Made by a program: the position numbers and the translations under genes. Source: an archaeon (GTDB lineage: Archaea > Iainarchaeota > Iainarchaeia > Iainarchaeales > GCA-2688035). From it: 28,099 nt of DNA. Shown piece after piece: positions 1 through 11,375 of the stretch. Positions within the stretch are counted from its first letter, which is position 1. Every line of letters begins with the position of its first letter. The notes beneath the pieces are model-generated. The model was not told the origin of the DNA. It worked only from the letters and a program-made list of their open reading frames with translations, and did no database searches. The DNA lies in NCBI GenBank assembly GCA_030616665.1, contig JAUWWX010000001.1:1-28099 (forward strand). The letters are read 5' to 3'.

Positions 1-222
1 AAGCACCGGCAGCTGCTTGACCAGATCTTAAGCATCAAGGCAAAGAAGCCTGTGCCAAGCAGCAAGCCTGGAAATGTCTCCCTCAAGGTTTTGCAGAACG
101 TGCCTGCCTTCATGGGCAGTGATATGAAGGAATACGGCCCCTTTGAAAAGGACAAGAGCATAGCGGTTCCGGAAAAGATTGCTAGCCTGCTTGTTTCAAG
201 AAAGCTGGCTGAGAGGGCTTGA
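1..222 (+). CDS. GINS complex subunit (Gins51/Gins15-type), C-terminal B-domain, 5'-truncated by the window edge
   Basis: Frame 1 is open from base 1 to TGA at 220-222: ...VSLKVLQNVPAFMGSDMKEYGPFEKDKSIAVPEKIASLLVSRKLAERA. This resembles the archaeal Gins51 B-domain pattern (VxxxxPxFxGxDxxxYGPF...VxxPxxxAxLL). It occupies the usual position upstream of S27e/aIF2a. Confidence 0.75.
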   Translation, partial: KHRQLLDQILSIKAKKPVPSSKPGNVSLKVLQNVPAFMGSDMKEYGPFEKDKSIAVPEKIASLLVSRKLAERA

Positions 223-223
223 G

Positions 224-424
224 GTGTTTTTTATCAGGAATACACAACTTGCAAGGGAGCCAAGCACCTTCTTTTTGAGGGTGAAGTGCAGTGGCTGCGG
301 GAACGAGCAGGTTATCTTCAGCGCTGCAAGCATGGCCGTACTCTGCCTCGGCTGCAACCAGGTTCTTGCTGCCAGTGGCCCTGGCAAAATAATTTTGAAG
401 TCAAAGGTTGTAAAATCTTTTTAG
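224..424 (+). CDS. rps27e: 30S ribosomal protein S27e (eS27), zinc ribbon
   Basis: FLRVKCSGCGNEQVIFSAAS...CLGCNQVLA...GK has the CxxC...CxxC S27e signature. The start is uncertain: GTG at 224 or ATC at 233. Confidence 0.92.
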   Translation: MFFIRNTQLAREPSTFFLRVKCSGCGNEQVIFSAASMAVLCLGCNQVLAASGPGKIILKSKVVKSF

Positions 425-486
425 GGTGTTGCGAAAAATGGGTTCTGGCTCGAAGGTTGTGAATTTTTTTTAAGGGTGTTGTGAAG

Positions 487-1260
487 ATGGATGAGAACCA
501 AGATGTGCCGGATATGGGCGAAACCGTTGTATGCAAAGTGAAGCAGGTCCTCAACTATGGTGCGTTTGTTGAGCTTGTGGAATACGGCAACAGAAAGGGC
601 TTTGTGCATATAAGCCAGGTTGCTACCAGGTGGGTAAAAAACATAAGGAACTTTGTCAAAGAGGGCCAGGTCAGGGCTGCAAAGGTCCTTTCAATTAATA
701 GGGAGAGGGGTCAGATAGACTTGTCTTTCACCAAAGTTTCGAGTCATGCCCAAAGGGCAAGAATAGAGGAGTGGAAGCAGCTGAAGCGGTGCAGGAAGCT
801 GCTTGAAATCCTTGCAAAAGAGCAGCACAAAACCTTCGAGGAAGCCTGGGAGGCTATTGCAAACCCATTGCTTGAAAAATATGACCGCTTGGCAGAGGCA
901 TTCCAAGAAATTGCATTGCATGAGGAAGCCGCAGCAGGTGTTGACAGCAAGTGGCTCAAGCCGTTAGTGGAAATGGTTAAGAAAAACGTGCCACCTCCAG
1001 AAAAAACGCTTAAGGGAACGCTTTCGCTGAGAAGCTTTAGACCTGATGGCGTAGATGCAATCAAGCAGGCCCTATTAAAGGCAGAGAAATTGAAGGGAAA
1101 GAAGATTGAACTTTTTTACAGCGGCGGCGGAAAATACGCTCTAAAAGCAACCGCCTCAGATTTCAAAAAAGCAGAAAAGGAGCTTAATGAGGCCGCTGCA
1201 ATGGTGGTAGAAACAGTGAAGGCTTCCGACGGAGAAGCAAACTTTGAGAGGGCTGACTAG
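487..1260 (+). CDS. eif2a: Translation initiation factor aIF2 subunit alpha
   Basis: N-terminal S1 domain (VCKVKQVLNYGAFVELVEY...GFVHISQV...IDLS), helical middle domain and C-terminal alpha/beta domain (YSGGGKYALKATASDFKKAE). ATG 487 preferred, with GGTG about 8 nt upstream. Confidence 0.95.
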   Translation: MDENQDVPDMGETVVCKVKQVLNYGAFVELVEYGNRKGFVHISQVATRWVKNIRNFVKEGQVRAAKVLSINRERGQIDLSFTKVSSHAQRARIEEWKQLKRCRKLLEILAKEQHKTFEEAWEAIANPLLEKYDRLAEAFQEIALHEEAAAGVDSKWLKPLVEMVKKNVPPPEKTLKGTLSLRSFRPDGVDAIKQALLKAEKLKGKKIELFYSGGGKYALKATASDFKKAEKELNEAAAMVVETVKASDGEANFERAD

Positions 1261-1261
1261 G

Positions 1262-2038
1262 ATGGGAACAAAGGTTGTTTTCTTGAAGAAGAAAAGGCTT
1301 TCAAAGCCAGTCCTTTTTGTGGGATTGCCAGGCATTGGCCTGGTTGGAAAAATCTGCGCGGACTACTTTTTGAAACAGTTCAAGACAGAGCTCATAGCAG
1401 AAGTCTACAGTGACAGCTTTCCGCCAACAGTCCACACAAAGGCCGGCCTAATAGACCTGATCACAGACCAGCTGCACGCATTCAAGTTCAAGGGAAGGCA
1501 CTTCCTTTTCCTTGCTGGGCCGGTGCAGCCAAGCCTTGATTTTAGGGCAGGCGGTTCACAAGAGCACTACGATTTTGCGGAGAGAATTGTTGAGACTGTA
1601 AAAAGCCTGGGTGTGAAACAGGTTTTTACCCTTGCAGGGATAAACATCGGCGACAAGAGGATGGAAGTGCAGCCAAGCGTTGTCGTTGCGGCAACAAACA
1701 AAAGGCTGTTGCAAGAATTCAAGGCAATTGGCGCGAAGTCAGATGAAAAAGAAGGCCTTATAAGCGGGGCAGCTGGCATGATTTTGGGAATCGCTGCACA
1801 GCACGGTTTGGAAGGAGCCTGCCTCATGGGCGAGACAAACGCAAAACTTGTTTACGGAGACCACGGCGCAGCCAAAAAGCTGATCGAGTTGCTTGTCAAG
1901 CGCTTTGGCTTCGAGGTTGACATGAAAAGCATTGAAAGGGAAGCCAAAAACATCGAGGAAGCCTTCAAAAAGCTCGTCAGGCAGTTCGAGGAAGTGGAAG
2001 AAAAGATGCCCCCAGAGGGGCCAAGCTACGTGAGGTAA
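1262..2038 (+). CDS. PAC2 family proteasome assembly chaperone-like protein
   Basis: VLFVGLPGIGLVGKI, ISGAAGMILG, GACLMGET and a C-terminal ...SYVR tail. Conserved position after aIF2a. ATG 1262 directly follows the aIF2a stop. Confidence 0.9.
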   Translation: MGTKVVFLKKKRLSKPVLFVGLPGIGLVGKICADYFLKQFKTELIAEVYSDSFPPTVHTKAGLIDLITDQLHAFKFKGRHFLFLAGPVQPSLDFRAGGSQEHYDFAERIVETVKSLGVKQVFTLAGINIGDKRMEVQPSVVVAATNKRLLQEFKAIGAKSDEKEGLISGAAGMILGIAAQHGLEGACLMGETNAKLVYGDHGAAKKLIELLVKRFGFEVDMKSIEREAKNIEEAFKKLVRQFEEVEEKMPPEGPSYVR

Positions 2039-2051
2039 AGGATTAAACCCC

Positions 2052-2690
2052 TTACAACAAGTCCTTATAATGTTTCATTTCTGGGTGTCGCTTAAGCATT
2101 TCAAGCACTCTTTCCACACCGTACTCTACTATTCTGGGAGTGGTCTTGTGCTTTTCTGCAATCTCTGTATAACTTTTGCCTGGTTCTCCAGCCAAGCCAA
2201 AACGCTCAAAGAAAAAAGTTCTGTATTTTGGTTGGACGCGTTGTAAGCCGTTAACAATTTTTACGACCTCTTTATTAAATTCCACGTTCTTAACCCGTTT
2301 TCTTCTATCTTGAACAGTTCCTTCAAAAGTCTTCTCACCACCCGGTATTTTGTTACTTAACGATTTAATTGATCCAGGGCTTCTTTTTTGTGCCCTGGCT
2401 TTTTCTAACTCTACTTTCAAACGGTTTTCCATTGCCACCCAGGCAAAAGTGCTAAATTTTGTCCTGCCGTCATATTTCGGTGCCAGTAGGCTCAATTCGT
2501 GAAGTGCTATTTGCTGAACGTCCTCTTTGTCCATTGCAAGCTTTTTAAAATGGCCTGAATTCTTTTCCCAAAATTTTTTACCTATTTCATATGCAAGACC
2601 CTTGTTGTTTTTGAACAAATCTTCTGGGCGCACTTTCTTTTTTGCTTTCCTGCGCTTAACCTTTTTTCCTCTTTTCCTAACAGGGACCAT
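2052..2690 (-). CDS. Sigma-70 family RNA polymerase sigma-factor-like protein (sigma2 + sigma4 regions) with a Lys/Arg-rich N-terminal extension
   Basis: Sigma2-like: LFKNNKGLAYEIGKKF...EDVQQIALHELSLLAPKYDGRTKFSTFAWVAMENRL (compare LVxxNLRLVxxIAKKY...EDLIQEGxIGLxKAxxKFDxxxGxKFSTYAxWWI). Sigma4-like: FFFERFGLAGEPGKSYTEIAEKHKTTPRIVEYGVERVLEMLKRHP (compare LRLRFGL...TLEEIG...VTRERVRQIExKALxKLRHP). Confidence 0.85.
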   Translation of the reverse strand: MVPVRKRGKKVKRRKAKKKVRPEDLFKNNKGLAYEIGKKFWEKNSGHFKKLAMDKEDVQQIALHELSLLAPKYDGRTKFSTFAWVAMENRLKVELEKARAQKRSPGSIKSLSNKIPGGEKTFEGTVQDRRKRVKNVEFNKEVVKIVNGLQRVQPKYRTFFFERFGLAGEPGKSYTEIAEKHKTTPRIVEYGVERVLEMLKRHPEMKHYKDLL

Positions 2691-2730
2691 ACGTAAAAAA
2701 TAGGCTCTTTTCCCTTTTTATCCCTTTTCC

Positions 2731-4002
2731 CTAGAATTCCCCAAGCGTCTTCTGGCCCTTAAAGCTATCCTTTTCCTTCATCTCGGCTTCAATTTCCCCT
2801 TTTTTCCTTTCAAATTCTTCCTTGCTGTCACAAATCACTGGCTTGCCGTAGTTGCCTCCACCGCCAGCAATGTAGTGGACAAAGCCCTTTCTGAAAGAAA
2901 CTACCTTTTGACCAACCCTTGGGTTTACCTGCTTCAATTCCTCTTCTGCTGCATCAATCAATGCGTTTATCTCACTCCCAAACCTTTCAACAAAGTCTCG
3001 CCACATGCTCTGCACGCTTATGCTGTTAATGCCTTGCACATTCAAGGCTAGCTGTATTATTTCTGCAAGCGGCACAATATGCAGGTAGCGTGGCCTAAAC
3101 TCTGGATGCTTGCTTTTTCCGTCTGAAAGCATTTCAATCCTGTCTCGAACGCCCCTCTTAATGGAGCCCCTGCACTTTGGGCAGCGCCAATTCAAGGCCT
3201 TTGCCTGTTCCAGGGAGAACTTGGAGTAGCATGCATTGCAGGCAGTCATGTGGTATTTGCCTTCCCTTGGGTCAAGGCCAACGTTTAGCTTAATCCTTTT
3301 TTCCTCCTTTTCCTCCAGCGCCTTTTTAAGCTCCTTAAAGGAAGGCTCTTTCATTTCAATTCTTGTGAATTCCCTGCCTATGCGATAAGGCCAGGGGCTG
3401 TGAGCATCTGAGCACGTGAGAAATTGGTATTGCCTGTTTTCTGCAATCATGTCAGCATAGTTGGTATCAGCGCTCAAGCCAAGCTCAAGAAAATGGATGC
3501 TTTTTCCCATGTTTCCATATGCCTTTTGGATGCTGTCAAAGAAGGCGTAAACAGAAAAGTAGGGCGTGAAAGCATGCGCTGGCCCAATAATGCCGCCTGC
3601 ATCCAAAACCTTTTCCGCAATCTCTTCTGGTGAAAGCCTGATAACCGGCCTGCCGCAGCCCCAGCTGTCAAACACTGCCTTTCCCTTCAAGGATTCCTTC
3701 AAATTGAGGGCAGAGGCAAAATCCGGCAAGAACACCAAATGGTGAATCCTCTTGTTGCACTGCACTTCAACCTGCGGAATGAAGAAAACCTGCTCTTTCT
3801 TGTCCAAAAAAACACCGTTCTCTTTCTCAATAATGTTTTCGCGCAGGTGCTTCATCCAGCTTGCCTGCAGCATGTCTGCCATGCCGCAGACATCAAGGCC
3901 CTTCAGCTTTGCCTGCTCTGCAATTATTGGGATGAGCATGTTCTTGCTCACGCCCGAGCTATACGGCCCGTGGAAATGCAAATCGCAGTTGAATTCAGTC
4001 AT
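2731..4002 (-). CDS. endoQ: Endonuclease Q family protein (PHP domain + zinc finger) with C-terminal PIP box
   Basis: DLHFHGPYS, HHLVFLP, PAHAFTPYFS, ELGLSAD, SDAHSP...GREF, DPREGKYHMTACNAC...CPKC...GVRDRI, GGGGNYG. It ends in QKTLGEF, a PCNA-interacting motif. Confidence 0.92.
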   Translation of the reverse strand: MTEFNCDLHFHGPYSSGVSKNMLIPIIAEQAKLKGLDVCGMADMLQASWMKHLRENIIEKENGVFLDKKEQVFFIPQVEVQCNKRIHHLVFLPDFASALNLKESLKGKAVFDSWGCGRPVIRLSPEEIAEKVLDAGGIIGPAHAFTPYFSVYAFFDSIQKAYGNMGKSIHFLELGLSADTNYADMIAENRQYQFLTCSDAHSPWPYRIGREFTRIEMKEPSFKELKKALEEKEEKRIKLNVGLDPREGKYHMTACNACYSKFSLEQAKALNWRCPKCRGSIKRGVRDRIEMLSDGKSKHPEFRPRYLHIVPLAEIIQLALNVQGINSISVQSMWRDFVERFGSEINALIDAAEEELKQVNPRVGQKVVSFRKGFVHYIAGGGGNYGKPVICDSKEEFERKKGEIEAEMKEKDSFKGQKTLGEF

Positions 4003-4535
4003 TGCTCGCTCTCCATTTCGTCTCTAATCCTCTCAACTTCTAGCAATTTCCTTAACAGGTAAACACAATAGTGCTCTTCGGCCCCTATCTTTATTCTTAT
4101 TCCTTTCCTCTCTGTTTGCAAAGAGGTTTTTCCCAAGTATTCAAGTTTGCCAATGCGCTCTAAACTCACATCAATCATTGTTCTGAGTGTATTTATTAAA
4201 GTGCTTGCATTTTCAATACTTCTATTATTGTCAAATATTTTGAGAAGCCTGTTGTATCCTTTGACCATTTGCGCATTTTTGTCAGATAAGGCTTTTTCCC
4301 TTTCGCGCAATTTACCTATCAGTGACGCCCTTCTTTTTCCCGCTTCTGCAATCAACCGCTTTAAAATTTTCTGTTCTGCCTGGGTTTTGTTTTTAAAGTA
4401 GTTTTTTAGGACACGTTCGTGCTTTGCATCAGAATCGCTAATCCTAATCAGGCTTTTTTCCATCCTGCTTGCGCTTCTCTTCAAAGACTTTTTCCAAGCC
4501 TCTGAGCCAGGTCTTTTGTGTATTCTTTTCGGCAT
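3999..4535 (-). CDS. Hypothetical basic, helical orphan protein
   Basis: Open frame of about 178 aa from ATG 4535 (MPKRIHKRP...); the ORF track starts at 4547. Its TGA overlaps the EndoQ ATG (ATGA at 3999-4002). No recognisable motif. Confidence 0.65.
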   Translation of the reverse strand: MPKRIHKRPGSEAWKKSLKRSASRMEKSLIRISDSDAKHERVLKNYFKNKTQAEQKILKRLIAEAGKRRASLIGKLREREKALSDKNAQMVKGYNRLLKIFDNNRSIENASTLINTLRTMIDVSLERIGKLEYLGKTSLQTERKGIRIKIGAEEHYCVYLLRKLLEVERIRDEMESEQ

Positions 4536-4601
4536 GCAATCAACCAATATGCTTAATTACTTTCTCAAAGAAAATTAATTTATAGTCTGTGTTAAGGTTA
4601 A

Positions 4602-5246
4602 TCAGTGGCTTTTTCTTGTTTTTAAAAATGTCATCTGCTGTATAACGCGGTTTCTTGCTTCATTCAGTGCTACCGCGGCTTCATAGGCTGCAAATCTCAC
4701 CAGTCTCAAAAGCTCCTTTTTTGGCACTGAGTAGTTTTCCATATGTCTACTTATCCCATGTCTGTCCGCCCACTCGACTTCTGTGCCAGGGGAGTTCATC
4801 ATTATTGCCCTTCCGTACTCTTCCATTATCCCCCCTCTTTGGGTTTGACTACTTGCCAGGCTCTCAATTTTTGAAATAACTTTTAGTATGTTCTGCAGTT
4901 CGCCTTTAGATTTTGTTGTCCTAATGCCCGCACTTTTACCCTTTCTAATCTTTCGCCAAACCACTTCCATTTGGCCTGGGCCATAACCAAGTTTCATTTC
5001 TCCATATATTTTAACAAGGGCTCTTGACAATTGTTTGACGGCTGTTATCGGAATGTCTGGAGGGCTTTTTCCTATCTTCCATTCATTTGCATTTTTTTCA
5101 AAAGCAAGCTTTGCCGCTGAATCCACAGTTTTCATTGCTTCCTCGCCAAGCATAGCTATTTCGGCTCTCTTTCTAGTGGGTGAGAAATCTCTGGGCCTTG
5201 CGTAATGTACTCTTTTTTCACGTAACCTGCTTGCTCTTCTAATCAT
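4602..5246 (-). CDS. Hypothetical basic orphan protein
   Basis: 214-aa ORF with an Arg-rich N-terminus. A TATA-like TTTTTTATA lies about 24-32 nt upstream on the minus strand. No recognisable family. Confidence 0.65.
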   Translation of the reverse strand: MIRRASRLREKRVHYARPRDFSPTRKRAEIAMLGEEAMKTVDSAAKLAFEKNANEWKIGKSPPDIPITAVKQLSRALVKIYGEMKLGYGPGQMEVVWRKIRKGKSAGIRTTKSKGELQNILKVISKIESLASSQTQRGGIMEEYGRAIMMNSPGTEVEWADRHGISRHMENYSVPKKELLRLVRFAAYEAAVALNEARNRVIQQMTFLKTRKSH

Positions 5247-5287
5247 TCAATATATTGTTAATTTCTTCCTATAAAAAAGTAATAGTT
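5247..5287. promoter_or_regulatory. Compact divergent promoter region (41 bp) with TATA-like element
   Basis: AT-rich spacer between divergent ATGs at 5246 and 5288. TATAAAAAA at 5270-5278 reads TTTTTTATA on the minus strand. Confidence 0.45.
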
Positions 5288-6301
5288 ATGCCTGAATTGC
5301 ATGAGGCAATGCTTTACAGCAAGCTTGAGGGCAAGAAAGTGAAATGTGGGCTTTGCAGGAGAAACTGCCTAATCCAAGAGAATGGAAAGGGCCAGTGCGG
5401 CGTAAGGAAAAACCTTGGCGGCAAGTTGTACAGCCTTGTCTACGGCAGAACCCTTACAATGGAAATCGACCCAATAGAGAAAAAGCCCTTGTTCAACTTC
5501 AAGCCAGGAACCCAGTGCCTGGGAATCTCAACCTATGGCTGCAATTTTTTCTGCAGGCACTGCCAAAACTGGCAGATTTCACAGCAGCGCGATGAGAAGG
5601 CAATTGCTGCTGTACCCTTCACTTCCCCGGTGGAAATTGTTGAGCAGACGCTTGCAGCAGGCGTGGAGGGAATTGCCTACACTTACACCGATCCAACAAT
5701 CTTTGCAGAGTACGCTTTGGACACGATGAAGCTGGCACGCAAGAAAGGGCTTTACAACGTATGGGTAAGCAACGGCTATATGTCCAAAGAATGCATTGAC
5801 GAGATTGTCCCCTTCCTTGACGCAATCAATGTTGACTTGAAGGGTGATGCCCGCTTTTACAAAGAGATTGTTGGCAACGCAAATATTGAATTTGTCAAGG
5901 AGAACATTGCCTACTTATACAAGAAGAAAATCCATTTGGAGGTAACAAACCTAATAGTGCCTGGATACAATGACAAGGAAAAGGACTTTGAGAGTGTTAG
6001 CAGCTTCGTTGCATCCCTCTCTTCGTTTGTGCCCCTTCATTTCACGAGGTTCTGGCCCTGCTACAAGATGCAGCATTTGCCTCCAACAGATGTAGGCAAG
6101 CTGCACAAGGCAAAGGAAATAGCTGAAAAAGCCGGCTTAAAATACGTTTACATTGGAAACGTTGCGGAGGAGGAAAGCACCAAATGCCCAAAATGTAGGG
6201 CTGTCCTTATAAAGCGCTTTGGGTTTGCCGCTCAGCCAGTTGGCTTGGGCAAGAAAGGAGAATGCAGGAAATGCGGCGCAAAAACAGGGATAATTGTTTG
6301 A
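5288..6301 (+). CDS. AmmeMemoRadiSam system radical SAM enzyme (PflA-like clade)
   Basis: N-terminal CGLCRRNC...G.CGVR, DPIEKKPLFNFKPG, radical SAM CNFFCRHCQN, IAYTYTDP, C-terminal CPKC...CRKC zinc ribbon. Confidence 0.9.
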   Translation: MPELHEAMLYSKLEGKKVKCGLCRRNCLIQENGKGQCGVRKNLGGKLYSLVYGRTLTMEIDPIEKKPLFNFKPGTQCLGISTYGCNFFCRHCQNWQISQQRDEKAIAAVPFTSPVEIVEQTLAAGVEGIAYTYTDPTIFAEYALDTMKLARKKGLYNVWVSNGYMSKECIDEIVPFLDAINVDLKGDARFYKEIVGNANIEFVKENIAYLYKKKIHLEVTNLIVPGYNDKEKDFESVSSFVASLSSFVPLHFTRFWPCYKMQHLPPTDVGKLHKAKEIAEKAGLKYVYIGNVAEEESTKCPKCRAVLIKRFGFAAQPVGLGKKGECRKCGAKTGIIV

Positions 6302-7666: not shown

Positions 7667-10612
7667 ATGAAAGGTTTGAACATAAAGAAGCTTGCCGCTA
7701 TTGCGGTAGGTGGAGCTTTAGTCGGTTCAGCCTTGGCGCCGCTGGCAGCAGCAATTAACGTCACAAAGGCAGACGTTGTTGGTGCAACCGGTGCTCCAGT
7801 GGTTAACGTCGTTGCAGGAATCAACGCACAGGCAAGTGACTTTGTTTGGGCAGGAAACATTGCCGCAAAAGTCGCTCAGTTGGCCACAGTGGACACTGCA
7901 TTGGCAGGTGGCGAAGGAACCGCTACACCAACAGGCCTAAGCGTTGACCTGGCTGTTGGCGGAGAAACGACTTATAGCACAGAGTACGCAAAAACCTACG
8001 ATGGAAGCAGCTATGGATTTGACAATACTAGCACTGATGCTGTCGCAGAATTCATAAAAGCGCCAGGACACGGCCAGCTGCCGTTCCTGTACAATGCATC
8101 AAAGAGCTACAGGTACAATGGTTCAACGTACAACGCAACAATGAAGGAAACCATCGGCATTGAAGCAGACGCAAGGTTTGAATACAACGACAAGGACGTC
8201 AAGGACCTAATTGCCTTGTTGGATGCAGAGGGCGACCTCAATTACGTCATTGACTTTGGTGACGGAATACCAAGCCAAGTAAGCAAAAGCGACACGGAAA
8301 AGTTCACTGACCAGGCCAACGACAACATCGTAATCCCTTTCATAGGAGACGAGTTCACGGTCCAAGAAATTGACATGTTGAGTTCGCCTAAGACAATCAG
8401 CCTGATAAAGGAGAGTGCAAAGGCAAACTACAACGAGGGCGACACAATCCCAGGGCTTACAGGAAAGGGAACCTACGCTGGCGAAGAGATGTCAGTCAAG
8501 GTTGCAGCCGTAACGCAGGCAGGGCCAACTGGTTCAGCCTACAGTGCAAGGTTTGGCCTATACGATTCAGAGGGAAACCTTGTTGACAGCCAGACGCTTG
8601 AAAGCGGACTCTACCTGCAGAAGAACTTCCTTGACGCGGAAGGCGCATATGCGCTGGAAACAGTCATCTATATCTCGGAAATAAACATTGAGCCAACCAC
8701 AAGCAAGGGCGTCATAACCCTGGTTGTCGGCAAAAACGTTGTAACCATAGGCAACGACAAGGTATACCCCTATGACGAAACAAACACAGACACCACAACA
8801 TGGTACTGGGCAGCAAGTATCGATGAAAACACCAGTACGACATCGGTAGGCGTTAACACAGTAGCCGCGGTAAGCGTCAAGAACAGGGAACAGGTATGGA
8901 ATGCACAGAGCCCGCTTTGGAGCACCACCAGTAGCCTGACCGAAAAAGGCAAAGAGGAAGCGGCTGCCGGAGGAGACACAGCCCACTTCCTGCAGGGCGA
9001 AGAAACAGGCCTTGGCTATGACTTCGTCAAGCTAAAGTTCAAGGGCTTCAAAGAAGACCAGGACAAGACAAAAATAATAGTCGGAAACAAGGACATAGTG
9101 TACACGGACGCAGACGACACATCGGCCACAATTCCGTTCTACTTTACAGTACCAGGACAGCCAGCAACAGGTACGCCATCACAAAAGACCATCACATTGA
9201 ACAGCACAAACTTCTACGCAAAGTGCTACAAGGGAACAGTGAATATCGATGTCTACGACGACAACAAGCTGAACGGTTCAGCGCTTGACTTCGGAAGCAT
9301 AGCCAATATAGGTTACATAGCCACGGACAACGGATGGGTTGCAATTAACACCTCCGCAATAACAAACGTGGACGTCGACATCAACGGTGTACAGTTCACC
9401 GTTACAGATGACCTTAATGCAAATGTCTACGACGGCAATGGTGCAACACTGCAGGCAGACGGAAACTGCGCCTATGCCTCAGAGGAATGGGGCACAGACG
9501 GCTCGCAGTCAGCCTACCTGAATGTAAACGGTACATCAACCTATAACCAAATTGGCTTGGATGGCACCGATACTGATACAGTGTACTTTGACGACACCAA
9601 CACCACTAGGACTCCAGGCGACCTGCCAATCTACTTTGCCAAAAGCGGAATGCAGGACACCTATAAGTACAGGCAGTACTACAGCATAAGCGGCAAGCAG
9701 GTCTACCTGCTACTGGACAGCAGTACAGACTTCAGCAACACCTTCAACAGCGTAGCAGACGTGAACTTCGTTGGAACAGACCCAGTTAACCTAGGCGACA
9801 AAGGTATCACGGGAGGCGAAGTCGCAGGCCTCTTCCCGTACTACTGGCCTGACACAGTGGATTTCACAAACGATTCAGCGGACGAGACCTATATAACAGC
9901 AATCTTTGGCGTACAAGGCCACACAACAGTCAGGGACAACTTCAGGATACACATTGACACCTATACCAACAACCTGATTACGCTGCCAAACACCAAGAGG
10001 GACGGCTATGAGGCAGACGTCAACTATGTGGACACAGATGAGCCGACATGGAGCCTGAAAGCCAGGACAGATGTGGCAACTGCATTGCACGCAGGCATAA
10101 CAAACTTTGGCACCACAGCTGAACTGACTGACGACATGGAGACAGCAACCTTCACTATCCCAGAGACAAGGGTTTACCTGAGCCTGACAGTAATGGGCGA
10201 GGGAGCCACAATGACAGTGGAAGGCGGCGAAACAGAGGAAGGTGTCTTGGAAGGTGAGACAGTAACCATTGCCGGAAAGGACATCACAGTTGCAGCAATC
10301 AACTACGCAGCAGGAACCTGCACAATAGAGGGCGAAACATATCCAAAGATAGTCTCAGTCGGGCAGTTGGTCTTCACAGACTCGCCGGCACCGGCCGGAA
10401 ACCACATCATTGTAGGTGGTTACATGGTCAACAAGCTGGCTGAGAACGTTGTATTGGGCGATGGGTCAACGCTGCAGGAAGCATTGACTGCGCCTGGCGA
10501 CGTCGTAGCCGAAGTGCTGGCAAACGGCAACATTGTTGTTGCTGGATACACGGCAACCGACACTGTGACAGCTGCCAAAGAACTAATCAGCGCACTGGAC
10601 GTATTGGCTTAA
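7667..10612 (+). CDS. S-layer protein (S_layer_N/S_layer_C-type termini), 981 aa
   Basis: Signal peptide MKGLNIKKLAAIAVGGALVGSALAPLAAA, N-terminal VVAG..A.ASD.V.AGNIAAK, and C-terminal IIVGGYMVNKL...IVVAGYTATDTVTAA. Acidic and Thr-rich with about 12 N-X-S/T sequons. Has a strong promoter, SD and terminator. Confidence 0.9.
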   Translation: MKGLNIKKLAAIAVGGALVGSALAPLAAAINVTKADVVGATGAPVVNVVAGINAQASDFVWAGNIAAKVAQLATVDTALAGGEGTATPTGLSVDLAVGGETTYSTEYAKTYDGSSYGFDNTSTDAVAEFIKAPGHGQLPFLYNASKSYRYNGSTYNATMKETIGIEADARFEYNDKDVKDLIALLDAEGDLNYVIDFGDGIPSQVSKSDTEKFTDQANDNIVIPFIGDEFTVQEIDMLSSPKTISLIKESAKANYNEGDTIPGLTGKGTYAGEEMSVKVAAVTQAGPTGSAYSARFGLYDSEGNLVDSQTLESGLYLQKNFLDAEGAYALETVIYISEINIEPTTSKGVITLVVGKNVVTIGNDKVYPYDETNTDTTTWYWAASIDENTSTTSVGVNTVAAVSVKNREQVWNAQSPLWSTTSSLTEKGKEEAAAGGDTAHFLQGEETGLGYDFVKLKFKGFKEDQDKTKIIVGNKDIVYTDADDTSATIPFYFTVPGQPATGTPSQKTITLNSTNFYAKCYKGTVNIDVYDDNKLNGSALDFGSIANIGYIATDNGWVAINTSAITNVDVDINGVQFTVTDDLNANVYDGNGATLQADGNCAYASEEWGTDGSQSAYLNVNGTSTYNQIGLDGTDTDTVYFDDTNTTRTPGDLPIYFAKSGMQDTYKYRQYYSISGKQVYLLLDSSTDFSNTFNSVADVNFVGTDPVNLGDKGITGGEVAGLFPYYWPDTVDFTNDSADETYITAIFGVQGHTTVRDNFRIHIDTYTNNLITLPNTKRDGYEADVNYVDTDEPTWSLKARTDVATALHAGITNFGTTAELTDDMETATFTIPETRVYLSLTVMGEGATMTVEGGETEEGVLEGETVTIAGKDITVAAINYAAGTCTIEGETYPKIVSVGQLVFTDSPAPAGNHIIVGGYMVNKLAENVVLGDGSTLQEALTAPGDVVAEVLANGNIVVAGYTATDTVTAAKELISALDVLA

Positions 10613-10673: not shown

Positions 10674-10763
10674 AAGCTTTTTTGCTTAAACAACCCCCTG
10701 GTTATGTAGAAGTTCCATTGGCTGCTGTGTACGTTTTTATTCCTTTTGCTTTAATTCTTGCTT

Positions 10764-11375
10764 ATGAACAAAGAGCACGCTGTCCCAATTACAGGGGTTG
10801 CAATCACAATTGCAATTGCCCTGTTCATCATTGCCTTTTTTCCAGTCAACAAAGGGCTTGTTGTTGAAGGCGTTTTCATAGATTCTGGCGAAAAGGACCC
10901 TTACAGCCTTTTCTCTGCCCTTAGCAAAAAGAGTGTTTTCCTCATCAGCCCGCAGATGCACGAACGGGCAGAAGCTGTTGACCATTCAATGTTCAACGGA
11001 ACCGCCTTGTTCCTGCAGGTCCTCGAGGGCAACAAAAGGAAACCTGTGCAGGTTATCAGGGTTTACAACGAAGGCAATGAACTAAGCTATTGCCTGACAA
11101 ACTACGGCGATGTGAACAAAAGCGAAACACTTGAAAAGCTAGAATGCCTTGAATACATTTCTCAGGAAAACAATGCAGTTGTGCTAATACAGTTTCCTGA
11201 CCAAAGGCTGCCACAGCCTGTTTTGGAAATAAGCGAGGGCAGGCTTGTCATAAAGCCAAAAACTGATGAGGGCATTGGAGAAGCATGCTTTCTTGCCCTT
11301 AGAATATTGTTCAAAAACAGCCAGCAGATTGTTGAAAGGTCAGACTTCTTTCTCAGGGGCCTACAGGGGGCCTAA
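10764..11375 (+). CDS. Hypothetical membrane-anchored protein (single N-terminal TM)
   Basis: ITGVAITIAIALFIIAFF anchor followed by a soluble domain with three Cys. ATG 10764. Confidence 0.7.
   Translation: MNKEHAVPITGVAITIAIALFIIAFFPVNKGLVVEGVFIDSGEKDPYSLFSALSKKSVFLISPQMHERAEAVDHSMFNGTALFLQVLEGNKRKPVQVIRVYNEGNELSYCLTNYGDVNKSETLEKLECLEYISQENNAVVLIQFPDQRLPQPVLEISEGRLVIKPKTDEGIGEACFLALRILFKNSQQIVERSDFFLRGLQGA

Follow-up and report, generated by a model that had tools for sequence, protein, structure and literature searches.

Rinke et al. reportedly noted "complete sigma factors in Archaea" in 2013. A sigma-70 family of DPANN archaea, fam00359, was later described as "particularly prevalent in Woesearchaeota"; mis-binning was excluded by the neighbouring genes, no anti-sigma factors were found and the mechanism was left unclear (Castelle et al. 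2021, PMC8204110). That sigma-70 genes occur in DPANN is thus published knowledge and not new as such, and ever since the first DPANN reports it has been asked why archaea that use TBP and TFB keep sigma genes of the bacterial type. Here we analyzed a 28-kb stretch of DNA (the window; positions 1 to 28,099 of contig JAUWWX010000001.1, assembly GCA_030616665.1) from a member of the Iainarchaeota. It carries at 2052..2690, on the minus strand, a coding sequence for a protein of the sigma-70 superfamily (P0001; 212 amino acids (aa), isoelectric point (pI) 10.2), which was assigned by its open reading frame (ORF), the TIGR02937 model, profile matches to the PDB and the predicted fold. Judged by description, P0001 is like fam00359 (PMC8204110) in being a bacterial-type sigma-70 protein in a DPANN archaeon with TBP, TFB and an archaeal RNA polymerase (RNAP). 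However, that account stresses the Woesearchaeota and gives no locus-level description, whereas the present gene belongs to the Iainarchaeota, has no sigma3 domain, is very basic, has lost the residues that read the -35 element and is strain-variable in a slot between the PAC2 and EndoQ genes. What is added here is a sigma3-less, very basic Iainarchaeota family, an insertion slot that can be shown to be empty in near-identical strains, and a residue-level list of the sigma features that survive.

Compared with the bacterial sigma factors of groups 1 to 3 (SigA/RpoD, RpoS, SigK/SigE, SigH and FliA), P0001 has in common the sigma2 and sigma4 folds, the D-x-x-Q of region 2.2, the FST-aromatic-A of region 2.3 and the V/I-S-L start of region 3.2. 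Unlike them, it has no sigma3 domain, no region 1.1 and no Trp dyad, its pI is 10.2 versus 4.7, and no bacterial core RNAP was found in its cell. Sigma factors of the extracytoplasmic function type (ECF, group 4) and the small sigma factors of phages resemble P0001 in size (about 200 aa) and in the two-domain sigma2-sigma4 layout, with TIGR02937 matched over its full length, and the nearest language-model clusters of P0001 consist of small sigma factors, including several viral ones. In contrast to the ECF group, the signature of P0001 is closer to groups 1 to 3, a linker like region 3.2 is kept and there is no anti-sigma neighbour. The MzaA protein of the MZA anti-phage system was matched generically by relatives, but P0001 itself had no PADLOC match. 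An MZA system would combine an MzaA match with MzaB-E genes next to it; as PADLOC also gave no defence-system match in the neighbours or the other slot cargo, the locus does not qualify as one.

The ORF runs exactly from 2052 to 2690 on the minus strand, starts with ATG and has 212 codons; each motif quoted in a preliminary description of this DNA, which had proposed a bacterial-type sigma factor homolog, was recovered in the translation. When P0001 was searched alone, Pfam Sigma70_r2 (PF04542) scored 16.2 bits (E-value 0.009), under the cut-off of 24, Sigma70_r4 (PF04545) gave no match, and NCBIfam TIGR02937 was a near miss at 40.6 bits (E-value 1.9e-10; model positions 4-163 of 165; cut-off 42.9), so that no curated cut-off of these three models was reached by the single sequence. 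PHROG 351 (RNA polymerase sigma factor) was matched with an E-value of 5.8e-8. A single-sequence phmmer search of the PDB gave chance matches only, to T7 gp14 at an E-value of 0.4.

To collect relatives, 1.84 billion cluster representatives were searched exhaustively with HMMER, which returned 35 proteins at E-values up to 1e-3, nine of them up to 1e-10; apart from the query, none of these exceeds 35 % identity to P0001. A word-indexed search of 5.8 billion proteins recovered the query alone, a scan of genome contigs with P0001 as a single protein found zero relatives, and the family alignment contains no run of 7-10 conserved columns. At the family level, Sigma70_r2 was matched by 13 of the 14 closest relatives and Sigma70_r4 by six of them, with several relatives passing the Pfam cut-offs outright; the RpoD_Cterm model matched 12/14 family members and the SigK model 13/14. 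When a 36-sequence family profile was compared with the PDB, the best matches were SigA chains (E-value 1e-38), followed by RpoS, SigF and FliA, and no ECF structure was observed among the top 60. A 14-sequence profile aligned with E. coli RpoD at residues 371-449 (region 2; E-value 4e-10) and 499-605 (regions 3.2-4; E-value 9e-13) and skipped residues 450-498, the sigma3 domain. The sigma homology of P0001 is thus weak as a single sequence and becomes decisive through the family-level profiles, an outcome that bears out the sigma2 homology claimed in the preliminary description. By profiles and predicted fold, P0001 is a genuine member of the sigma-70 superfamily.

The AlphaFold2 model built from the 14-sequence alignment had a mean predicted local distance difference test score (pLDDT) of 90.5, and the top 50 Foldseek matches of this model in the PDB were all sigma factors. 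Residues 18-99 of the model superposed on the N-terminal domain of SigE (Z 10.5; root-mean-square deviation (rmsd) 2.7 Å), its sigma2 domain on region 2 of RpoS (Z 9.5; rmsd 2.0 Å) and residues 137-210 on region 4 of SigA (Z 9.3; rmsd 2.2 Å). Both the sigma2 and the sigma4 fold expected from the motifs are therefore recognised in the predicted structure. Along the minus strand, the protein begins with a Lys/Arg-rich tail defined by composition (codons 1-21, 2628..2690), in which pLDDT is lower (72-86). The sigma2 domain follows (regions 1.2/2.1-2.4; codons 22-102, 2385..2627), as placed by the RpoD profile alignment and the structural match, and then a linker that aligns to sigma70 region 3.2 in the profile alignment (codons 103-135, 2286..2384). 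The sigma4 helix-turn-helix (codons 136-209, 2064..2285) was defined by its match to SigA region 4 and carries the recognition helix TPRIVEY.

Neither a sigma3 domain nor an acidic region 1.1 is present in P0001. In primary sigma factors region 1.1 is acidic and auto-inhibitory; the basic tail takes its position and is common to the family. The added tail noted in the preliminary description is indeed strongly basic, as Lys and Arg make up 13 of the first 25 residues. Family members have pI values of 9.9-11.2, versus 4.7 for E. coli RpoD.

Individual residues were compared using E. coli sigma70 numbering. D403 and Q406 are kept as D57 and Q60, each in 13/14 family members, and L412 and L598 are kept as L66 and L199. 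The region 2.3 motif F427-S-T-Y-A is kept as F79-S-T-F-A. At the start of region 3.2, S506 corresponds to S110, which is invariant in the 14-sequence alignment, and M507 to L111, found in 13/14 members; R103 is nearly invariant in the same alignment. We take L402, D403, Q406, E407, N409 and M413 to be the contacts of sigma70 with the beta-prime clamp helices, and in this region 2.2 set L402, E407, N409 and M413 are changed to E, I, L and S in P0001. The aromatic residues that melt the -10 element (Y425, Y430, W433 and W434) are replaced by T77, F82, V85 and A86, so the Trp pair described earlier as reduced is V85/A86 here, and the W433/W434 dyad is present in no family member. Since ECF sigma factors likewise have no Trp dyad, its loss alone does not exclude sigma function. 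Q437, T440 and R441 are changed as well. In the recognition helix, the -35-reading residues R584, E585, R586, R588 and Q589 are replaced by P185, R186, I187, E189 and Y190; the exchange of TRERIRQ for TPRIVEY reported in the preliminary description is thus real, and all the canonical -35-reading residues are gone. This loss is confined to the ortholog group P0001, P0002 and P0004, and the recognition helix of P0005, P0006 and P0008 is canonical or near-canonical (ERIRQ(I)).

On one side of the sigma gene lies a convergent gene of the PAC2 proteasome-assembly-chaperone family (1244..2038, plus strand; E-value 2.4e-40) and on its upstream side a conserved EndoQ gene (2731..4002, minus strand; E-value 1.9e-102 to P. 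furiosus EndoQ), the product of which ends in QKTLGEF, a PIP-like tail. These are the two flanks that had been recognised before, and both identifications stand. To survey the position, PAC2 was searched in 23 genomes of the GTDB family and its neighbours were mapped, and 15 genomes were informative. In ten of the 15, PAC2 and EndoQ lie stop-to-stop, abutting or with a gap of at most about 75 nt; those of the same genus among these ten are G001, G002 and G003. The slot is occupied in the remaining five (G000, G004, G005, G006 and G015). G000 is the window genome, with the 212-aa sigma gene. G004 carries a 304-aa protein of the layout basic tail-sigma2-sigma4-sigma4 (L060 2299-3213, minus strand), 27.6 % identical to P0001 and the same sequence as P0024. 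In G005 a 203-aa protein has lost the sigma2 motifs and is linked to the family by hhalign (probability 77 %, E-value 2e-5). The slot of G006 (L057 2392-3416) holds unrelated ORFs of 78 aa and 259 aa with 34 % GC, and that of G015 (L061 2409-3604) holds a 227-aa ORF that looks helix-turn-helix-like by eye and a 125-aa ORF. PADLOC gave no match for the slot ORFs of G006 or G015.

The slot was also examined in metagenomes using Logan contigs from four independent studies (marine sediment, cold seep and others), which were mapped to window positions 1-5300 at an identity of at least 80 %. Where contigs covered the aIF2-alpha and PAC2 genes, identity was about 96-98 %, and in EndoQ it was about 90-92 %, but depth across the sigma gene (2125-2655) was zero in four of four runs. 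No run with the sigma allele of the window itself was found. One X6 contig joins position 2031 to position 2738 with 10 nt between them, leaving PAC2 and EndoQ both intact. The same junction is present in X2, where PAC2 ends in YVR-stop and EndoQ in TLGEF-stop and the two stop codons overlap. The X6/X2 junction is a clean empty site in relatives with flanks about 96 % identical. In further sequences, X2 at 2039 and X7 at 2036, PAC2 runs on into unlike sequence, and these divergent continuations are further alleles of the slot. Neither target-site duplications nor att-like repeats were found flanking the insert, and there is no integrase or other viral or defence gene near the sigma gene. The sigma gene is an accessory, strain-variable insert and not part of the core genome. 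In the same relatives, EndoQ, which has cargo on both sides, is more diverged (about 90-92 %) than aIF2-alpha and PAC2 (about 96-98 %).

Upstream of EndoQ, on the minus strand, are two orphan basic ORFs of 182 aa (3999-4547) and 214 aa (4602-5246), both with Arg/Lys-rich N-termini and neither with a Pfam, NCBIfam or significant PHROG match. None of the four Logan runs had any depth at 4072-4425 or 4603-4779, and at 4426-4602 there was a trace in X1 only. In G002 and G019 EndoQ abuts a radical-SAM gene, and the two orphans are therefore cargo too. They were considered as sigma relatives, and hhalign against the sigma profile was non-significant (E-value 0.065 for a sigma4-like stretch of the 214-aa ORF and 0.21 for the other); a language-model search with the 214-aa ORF returned no coherent family. 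As a separate observation, G014 has an EndoQ 76 % identical to that of the window (contig C28, L064) beside PAC2, with a gap of about 75 nt and no cargo, and a second EndoQ, 62 % identical, on a 3.1-kb contig (C49, L012). After this second copy come the sigma ortholog P0004 and then a large protein with multiple winged helices. Contig C49 may belong to another Iainarchaeote in the bin, or else EndoQ and sigma are mobile as a unit.

The GC content of the sigma gene is 0.399 compared with 0.499 for PAC2, in line with the lower GC remarked on previously. Lysine richness is not the cause, as GC at third codon positions (GC3) is 0.384, whereas about 0.52 is expected from the amino-acid composition and the codon preference of the genome. 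All three cargo genes have a GC3 of 0.38-0.42 (182-aa ORF 0.42; 214-aa ORF 0.38), versus 0.48-0.58 for the housekeeping genes of the contig. The sigma gene also evolves at several times the rate of its flanks: the window and an independent European Nucleotide Archive (ENA) contig (L008) share 31 % identity in sigma and 83 % in PAC2, the window and contig C49 of G014 share 34 % in sigma and 62 % in EndoQ, and the window and G004 share 27.6 % in sigma and 78 % in PAC2. Among slot orthologs the identity is 36-49 % in sigma2 and 19-26 % in sigma4. The closest ortholog is 31-34 % identical, and synonymous sites are saturated.

The family tree is poorly resolved, with 27 of 43 inner branches open and very long terminal branches (median 1.27 substitutions per site), and it lends weak support to two groupings. 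Within it, the slot genes group together (Shimodaira-Hasegawa-like approximate likelihood ratio test (SH-aLRT) 81), and they fall within a 29-row clade that contains the top matches and most of the sampled Iainarchaeota rows and has an SH-aLRT of 92, with E. coli RpoD outside. Of 20 family loci examined, 19 have an intact frame at least about 200 aa long, and one relative has an internal stop. The family is small and rich in Iainarchaeota members; across the phylum, its profile was matched in 26/215 genomes (about 1 in 8) and 17/79 genera. The sequences thus indicate that the sigma gene is maintained as a coding gene where it is present, and that it is patchy, often lost and fast-evolving. The preliminary description had called it horizontally acquired and retained. 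Descent from a bacterial-type sigma-70 factor, in heavily remodelled form, stands; "retained" was an overstatement for an accessory gene. Because the recognisable near relatives are all in other Iainarchaeota, any bacterial donor would be ancient.

A purine-rich spacer of 40 nt (2691..2730, minus strand) separates the sigma start from the EndoQ stop. Its ATAAAAAG at 2714-2721 lies 31 to 24 nt before the ATG and is similar to an archaeal TATA box, and TATTTTTT follows downstream at 2695-2702. The layout of purine run, ATAAAAAG and TATTTTTT is recognisable in G004 and partly in G005. This layout suggests that the spacer is an archaeal TATA-type promoter, possibly with a short or absent leader, and since it is shared among G000, G004 and G005 it supports descent in place. 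In L008 and G014, the sigma gene instead joins EndoQ directly, with a gap of 2 nt or an overlap between them.

The host is unmistakably archaeal. The contig encodes aIF2-alpha, PAC2, EndoQ, aRF1, a diphthamide synthase and TruD, together with an enzyme of the pyruvate phosphate dikinase/phosphoenolpyruvate synthase family, and the relatives of its aRF1 are 71-83 % identical and mostly labelled Candidatus Iainarchaeum (Diapherotrites/Iainarchaeota, DPANN). The assembly (980 kb, 79 % complete) encodes Rpo1 and Rpo2 of the archaeal type, Rpo2 scoring 886 bits against rpoB_arch, as well as both TBP and TFB. Bacterial rpoB and rpoC, which had been presumed absent, were not found in the 79 %-complete assembly; TIGR02013 and TIGR02386 cross-match archaeal Rpo2 and Rpo1 far below their cut-offs, and the only transcription machinery seen was archaeal RNAP, TBP and TFB. 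With archaeal genes on both sides on the same contig, the placing of a sigma homolog in an archaeal chromosome is confirmed. No anti-sigma neighbour was found at the locus, and Rfam gave no match in the window.

With moderate confidence, we read P0001 from its sequence as a dispensable, lineage-specific, sigma-derived DNA-binding transcription regulator, and probably not as a true sigma factor. Transcription of the gene would start at a TATA-like element of its own, of archaeal type, or be shared with EndoQ. DNA would be contacted directly, without RNAP, by the basic tail and by the helix-turn-helix of the re-specified sigma4. As the auto-inhibition by region 1.1 is gone, P0001 might modulate TBP/TFB-driven transcription at a few targets and not replace it, and the better-conserved sigma2 half may still hold a protein partner. 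We lean towards DNA binding because a basic tail replaces the acidic region 1.1 and the pI is high, because relatives carry fused winged-helix domains of the MarR/IclR/ArsR type or an additional sigma4 (G004), because sigma4, the DNA-reading half, is the most variable among slot orthologs, and because the TATA-like spacer element is conserved among positional orthologs. That the gene is dispensable, hypervariable and in a defined slot argues against a core initiation role in this lineage. Several observations weigh against a regulator of this kind. The conserved D57, Q60 and S110 are RNAP-contact positions in bacteria, and a free-standing DNA binder does not obviously need them. Besides the query, no relative above about 35 % identity was found among 15 billion proteins. 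The lost sigma2 motifs of the G005 copy, the frequent loss and the low GC3 also fit decay. An effector aimed at the RNAP of a bacterial partner, which the preliminary description had raised, has no support in the data, and of the roles listed there a stand-alone regulator is the one we lean to.

The conserved contact positions would fit an RNAP adaptor, in which sigma2 would sit on the clamp coiled coil of archaeal Rpo1N (the TFE/Spt5 site) with the region-3.2 linker in the cleft, redirecting or tuning the archaeal RNAP at certain promoters. The D403/Q406 equivalents are nearly invariant and S506 (S110) is invariant, sigma2 is better conserved than sigma4 among slot orthologs, and the clamp coiled coil of Rpo1N can be aligned to beta-prime 233-377 without a gap (37 % identity), NRLK and LQ being kept. 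But R275, E295 and A302 of beta-prime, presumably sigma-binding residues, are I, L and H in Rpo1N of this genome, and on the sigma side E407, N409 and M413 are changed to I, L and S. The Trp dyad for promoter melting is absent, near-identical strains dispense with the gene, and a scan of 1900-5400 for sigma70-type promoters gave 0 sites versus 4.0 in shuffles. We regard such an adaptor as quite unlikely, and the proposal that sigma2 and the region-3.2 linker across the family have kept their hold on a multisubunit RNAP, here the archaeal one via the clamp coiled coil of Rpo1N, as very doubtful. The strain variability itself could instead point to conflict or mobile-element cargo, with the sigma gene and the two orphan ORFs brought in by a virus, a plasmid or inter-strain recombination and P0001 acting in virus-host or symbiont-host conflict, for example as a takeover factor, a decoy or an MzaA-like defence component. 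A slot that is empty in some strains and holds deeply diverged alleles in others, between flanks that are very alike, fits this, as do the low GC3 of all three cargo genes, the nearest language-model clusters, which include small Uroviricota sigma factors, the PHROG 351 match, and the MzaA model, which is matched by 8-9/14 family members; rpoS-like genes have been reported in DPANN viruses and a prophage (PMC12647753). However, the neighbourhood has no integrase, att-like repeat, viral or defence gene, P0001 has no PADLOC match and MzaA is merely another sigma-70 relative. No relative turned up when viral contigs (IMG/VR) were scanned with P0001, P0005 and P0008 or when 50,697 phage records were searched by tblastn, and the spacer conserved in G000, G004 and G005 argues for descent in place; we consider a conflict role unlikely. 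A decaying relic, that is, an acquired sigma gene drifting under relaxed constraint with no present function, would explain the very fast evolution and frequent loss, the G005 ortholog without sigma2 motifs, the relative with an internal stop, the lost canonical DNA-reading residues and the low codon adaptation. Yet 19/20 family loci have intact frames, a chance open frame of 212 codons at 40 % GC is estimated to be very unlikely, a shallow alignment gave a pLDDT of 90.5, certain positions are invariant or nearly so although the sequences are about 30 % identical overall, and the upstream spacer is conserved, so we think decay improbable. Mis-assembly or mis-binning of a bacterial or phage fragment into an archaeal contig has almost no chance of being correct. 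The sigma GC below that of the flanks is what such an artefact would give, but archaeal genes stand on both sides on one 28-kb contig and the near relatives are all in Iainarchaeota genomes. The order EndoQ, sigma and reversed PAC2 also recurs in the independent ENA contig (L008) and in G004 and G005, which belong to the same genus, and chimeric flanks, a concern in the preliminary description, are for that reason very unlikely.

The locus narrows the question of why archaea with TBP and TFB keep sigma genes and does not answer it. It supplies natural sigma-plus and sigma-minus strains with flanks about 96 % identical, and it lists the features that survive without a bacterial RNAP: the D/Q pair of region 2.2, FST-aromatic-A and the serine of region 3.2. 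If RNAP engagement were true, promoter selection in some DPANN would have, atop TBP/TFB, a second layer that is sigma-like and varies between strains, and the empty-site strains would be natural knock-outs of this layer.

Other members of the family are larger. P0003, P0006, P0007 and P0031 (625-646 aa; loci include L045 of G128 and L009) have a C-terminal sigma2-sigma4 module, ahead of which about 420 residues match winged-helix domains of the MarR/IclR/ArsR/PadR type. In two loci (L009 and L010), a beta-CASP/RMMBL nuclease gene was observed near the genes of the long members. The window genome itself has a second sigma-like gene on contig C28 (L002 1492-2493, minus strand). Its 333-aa product matches TIGR02937 in the C-terminal half (32 bits; E-value 4.7e-8) and shows, by eye, two helix-turn-helix-like repeats in the N-terminal half; its start is overlapped by an ORF of 85 aa (L002 2493-2750) with, by eye, a ribbon-helix-helix look. 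In the window, on the plus strand, a 981-aa ORF (7667-10612) with only 5.8 % Lys+Arg and a 205-aa ORF (10758-11375) have no Pfam match at E-values up to 1e-5. On contig C20 of G167 (L046), two sigma-family genes with open frames of 253 and 227 aa form a same-strand tandem, and one of them is identical to P0014.

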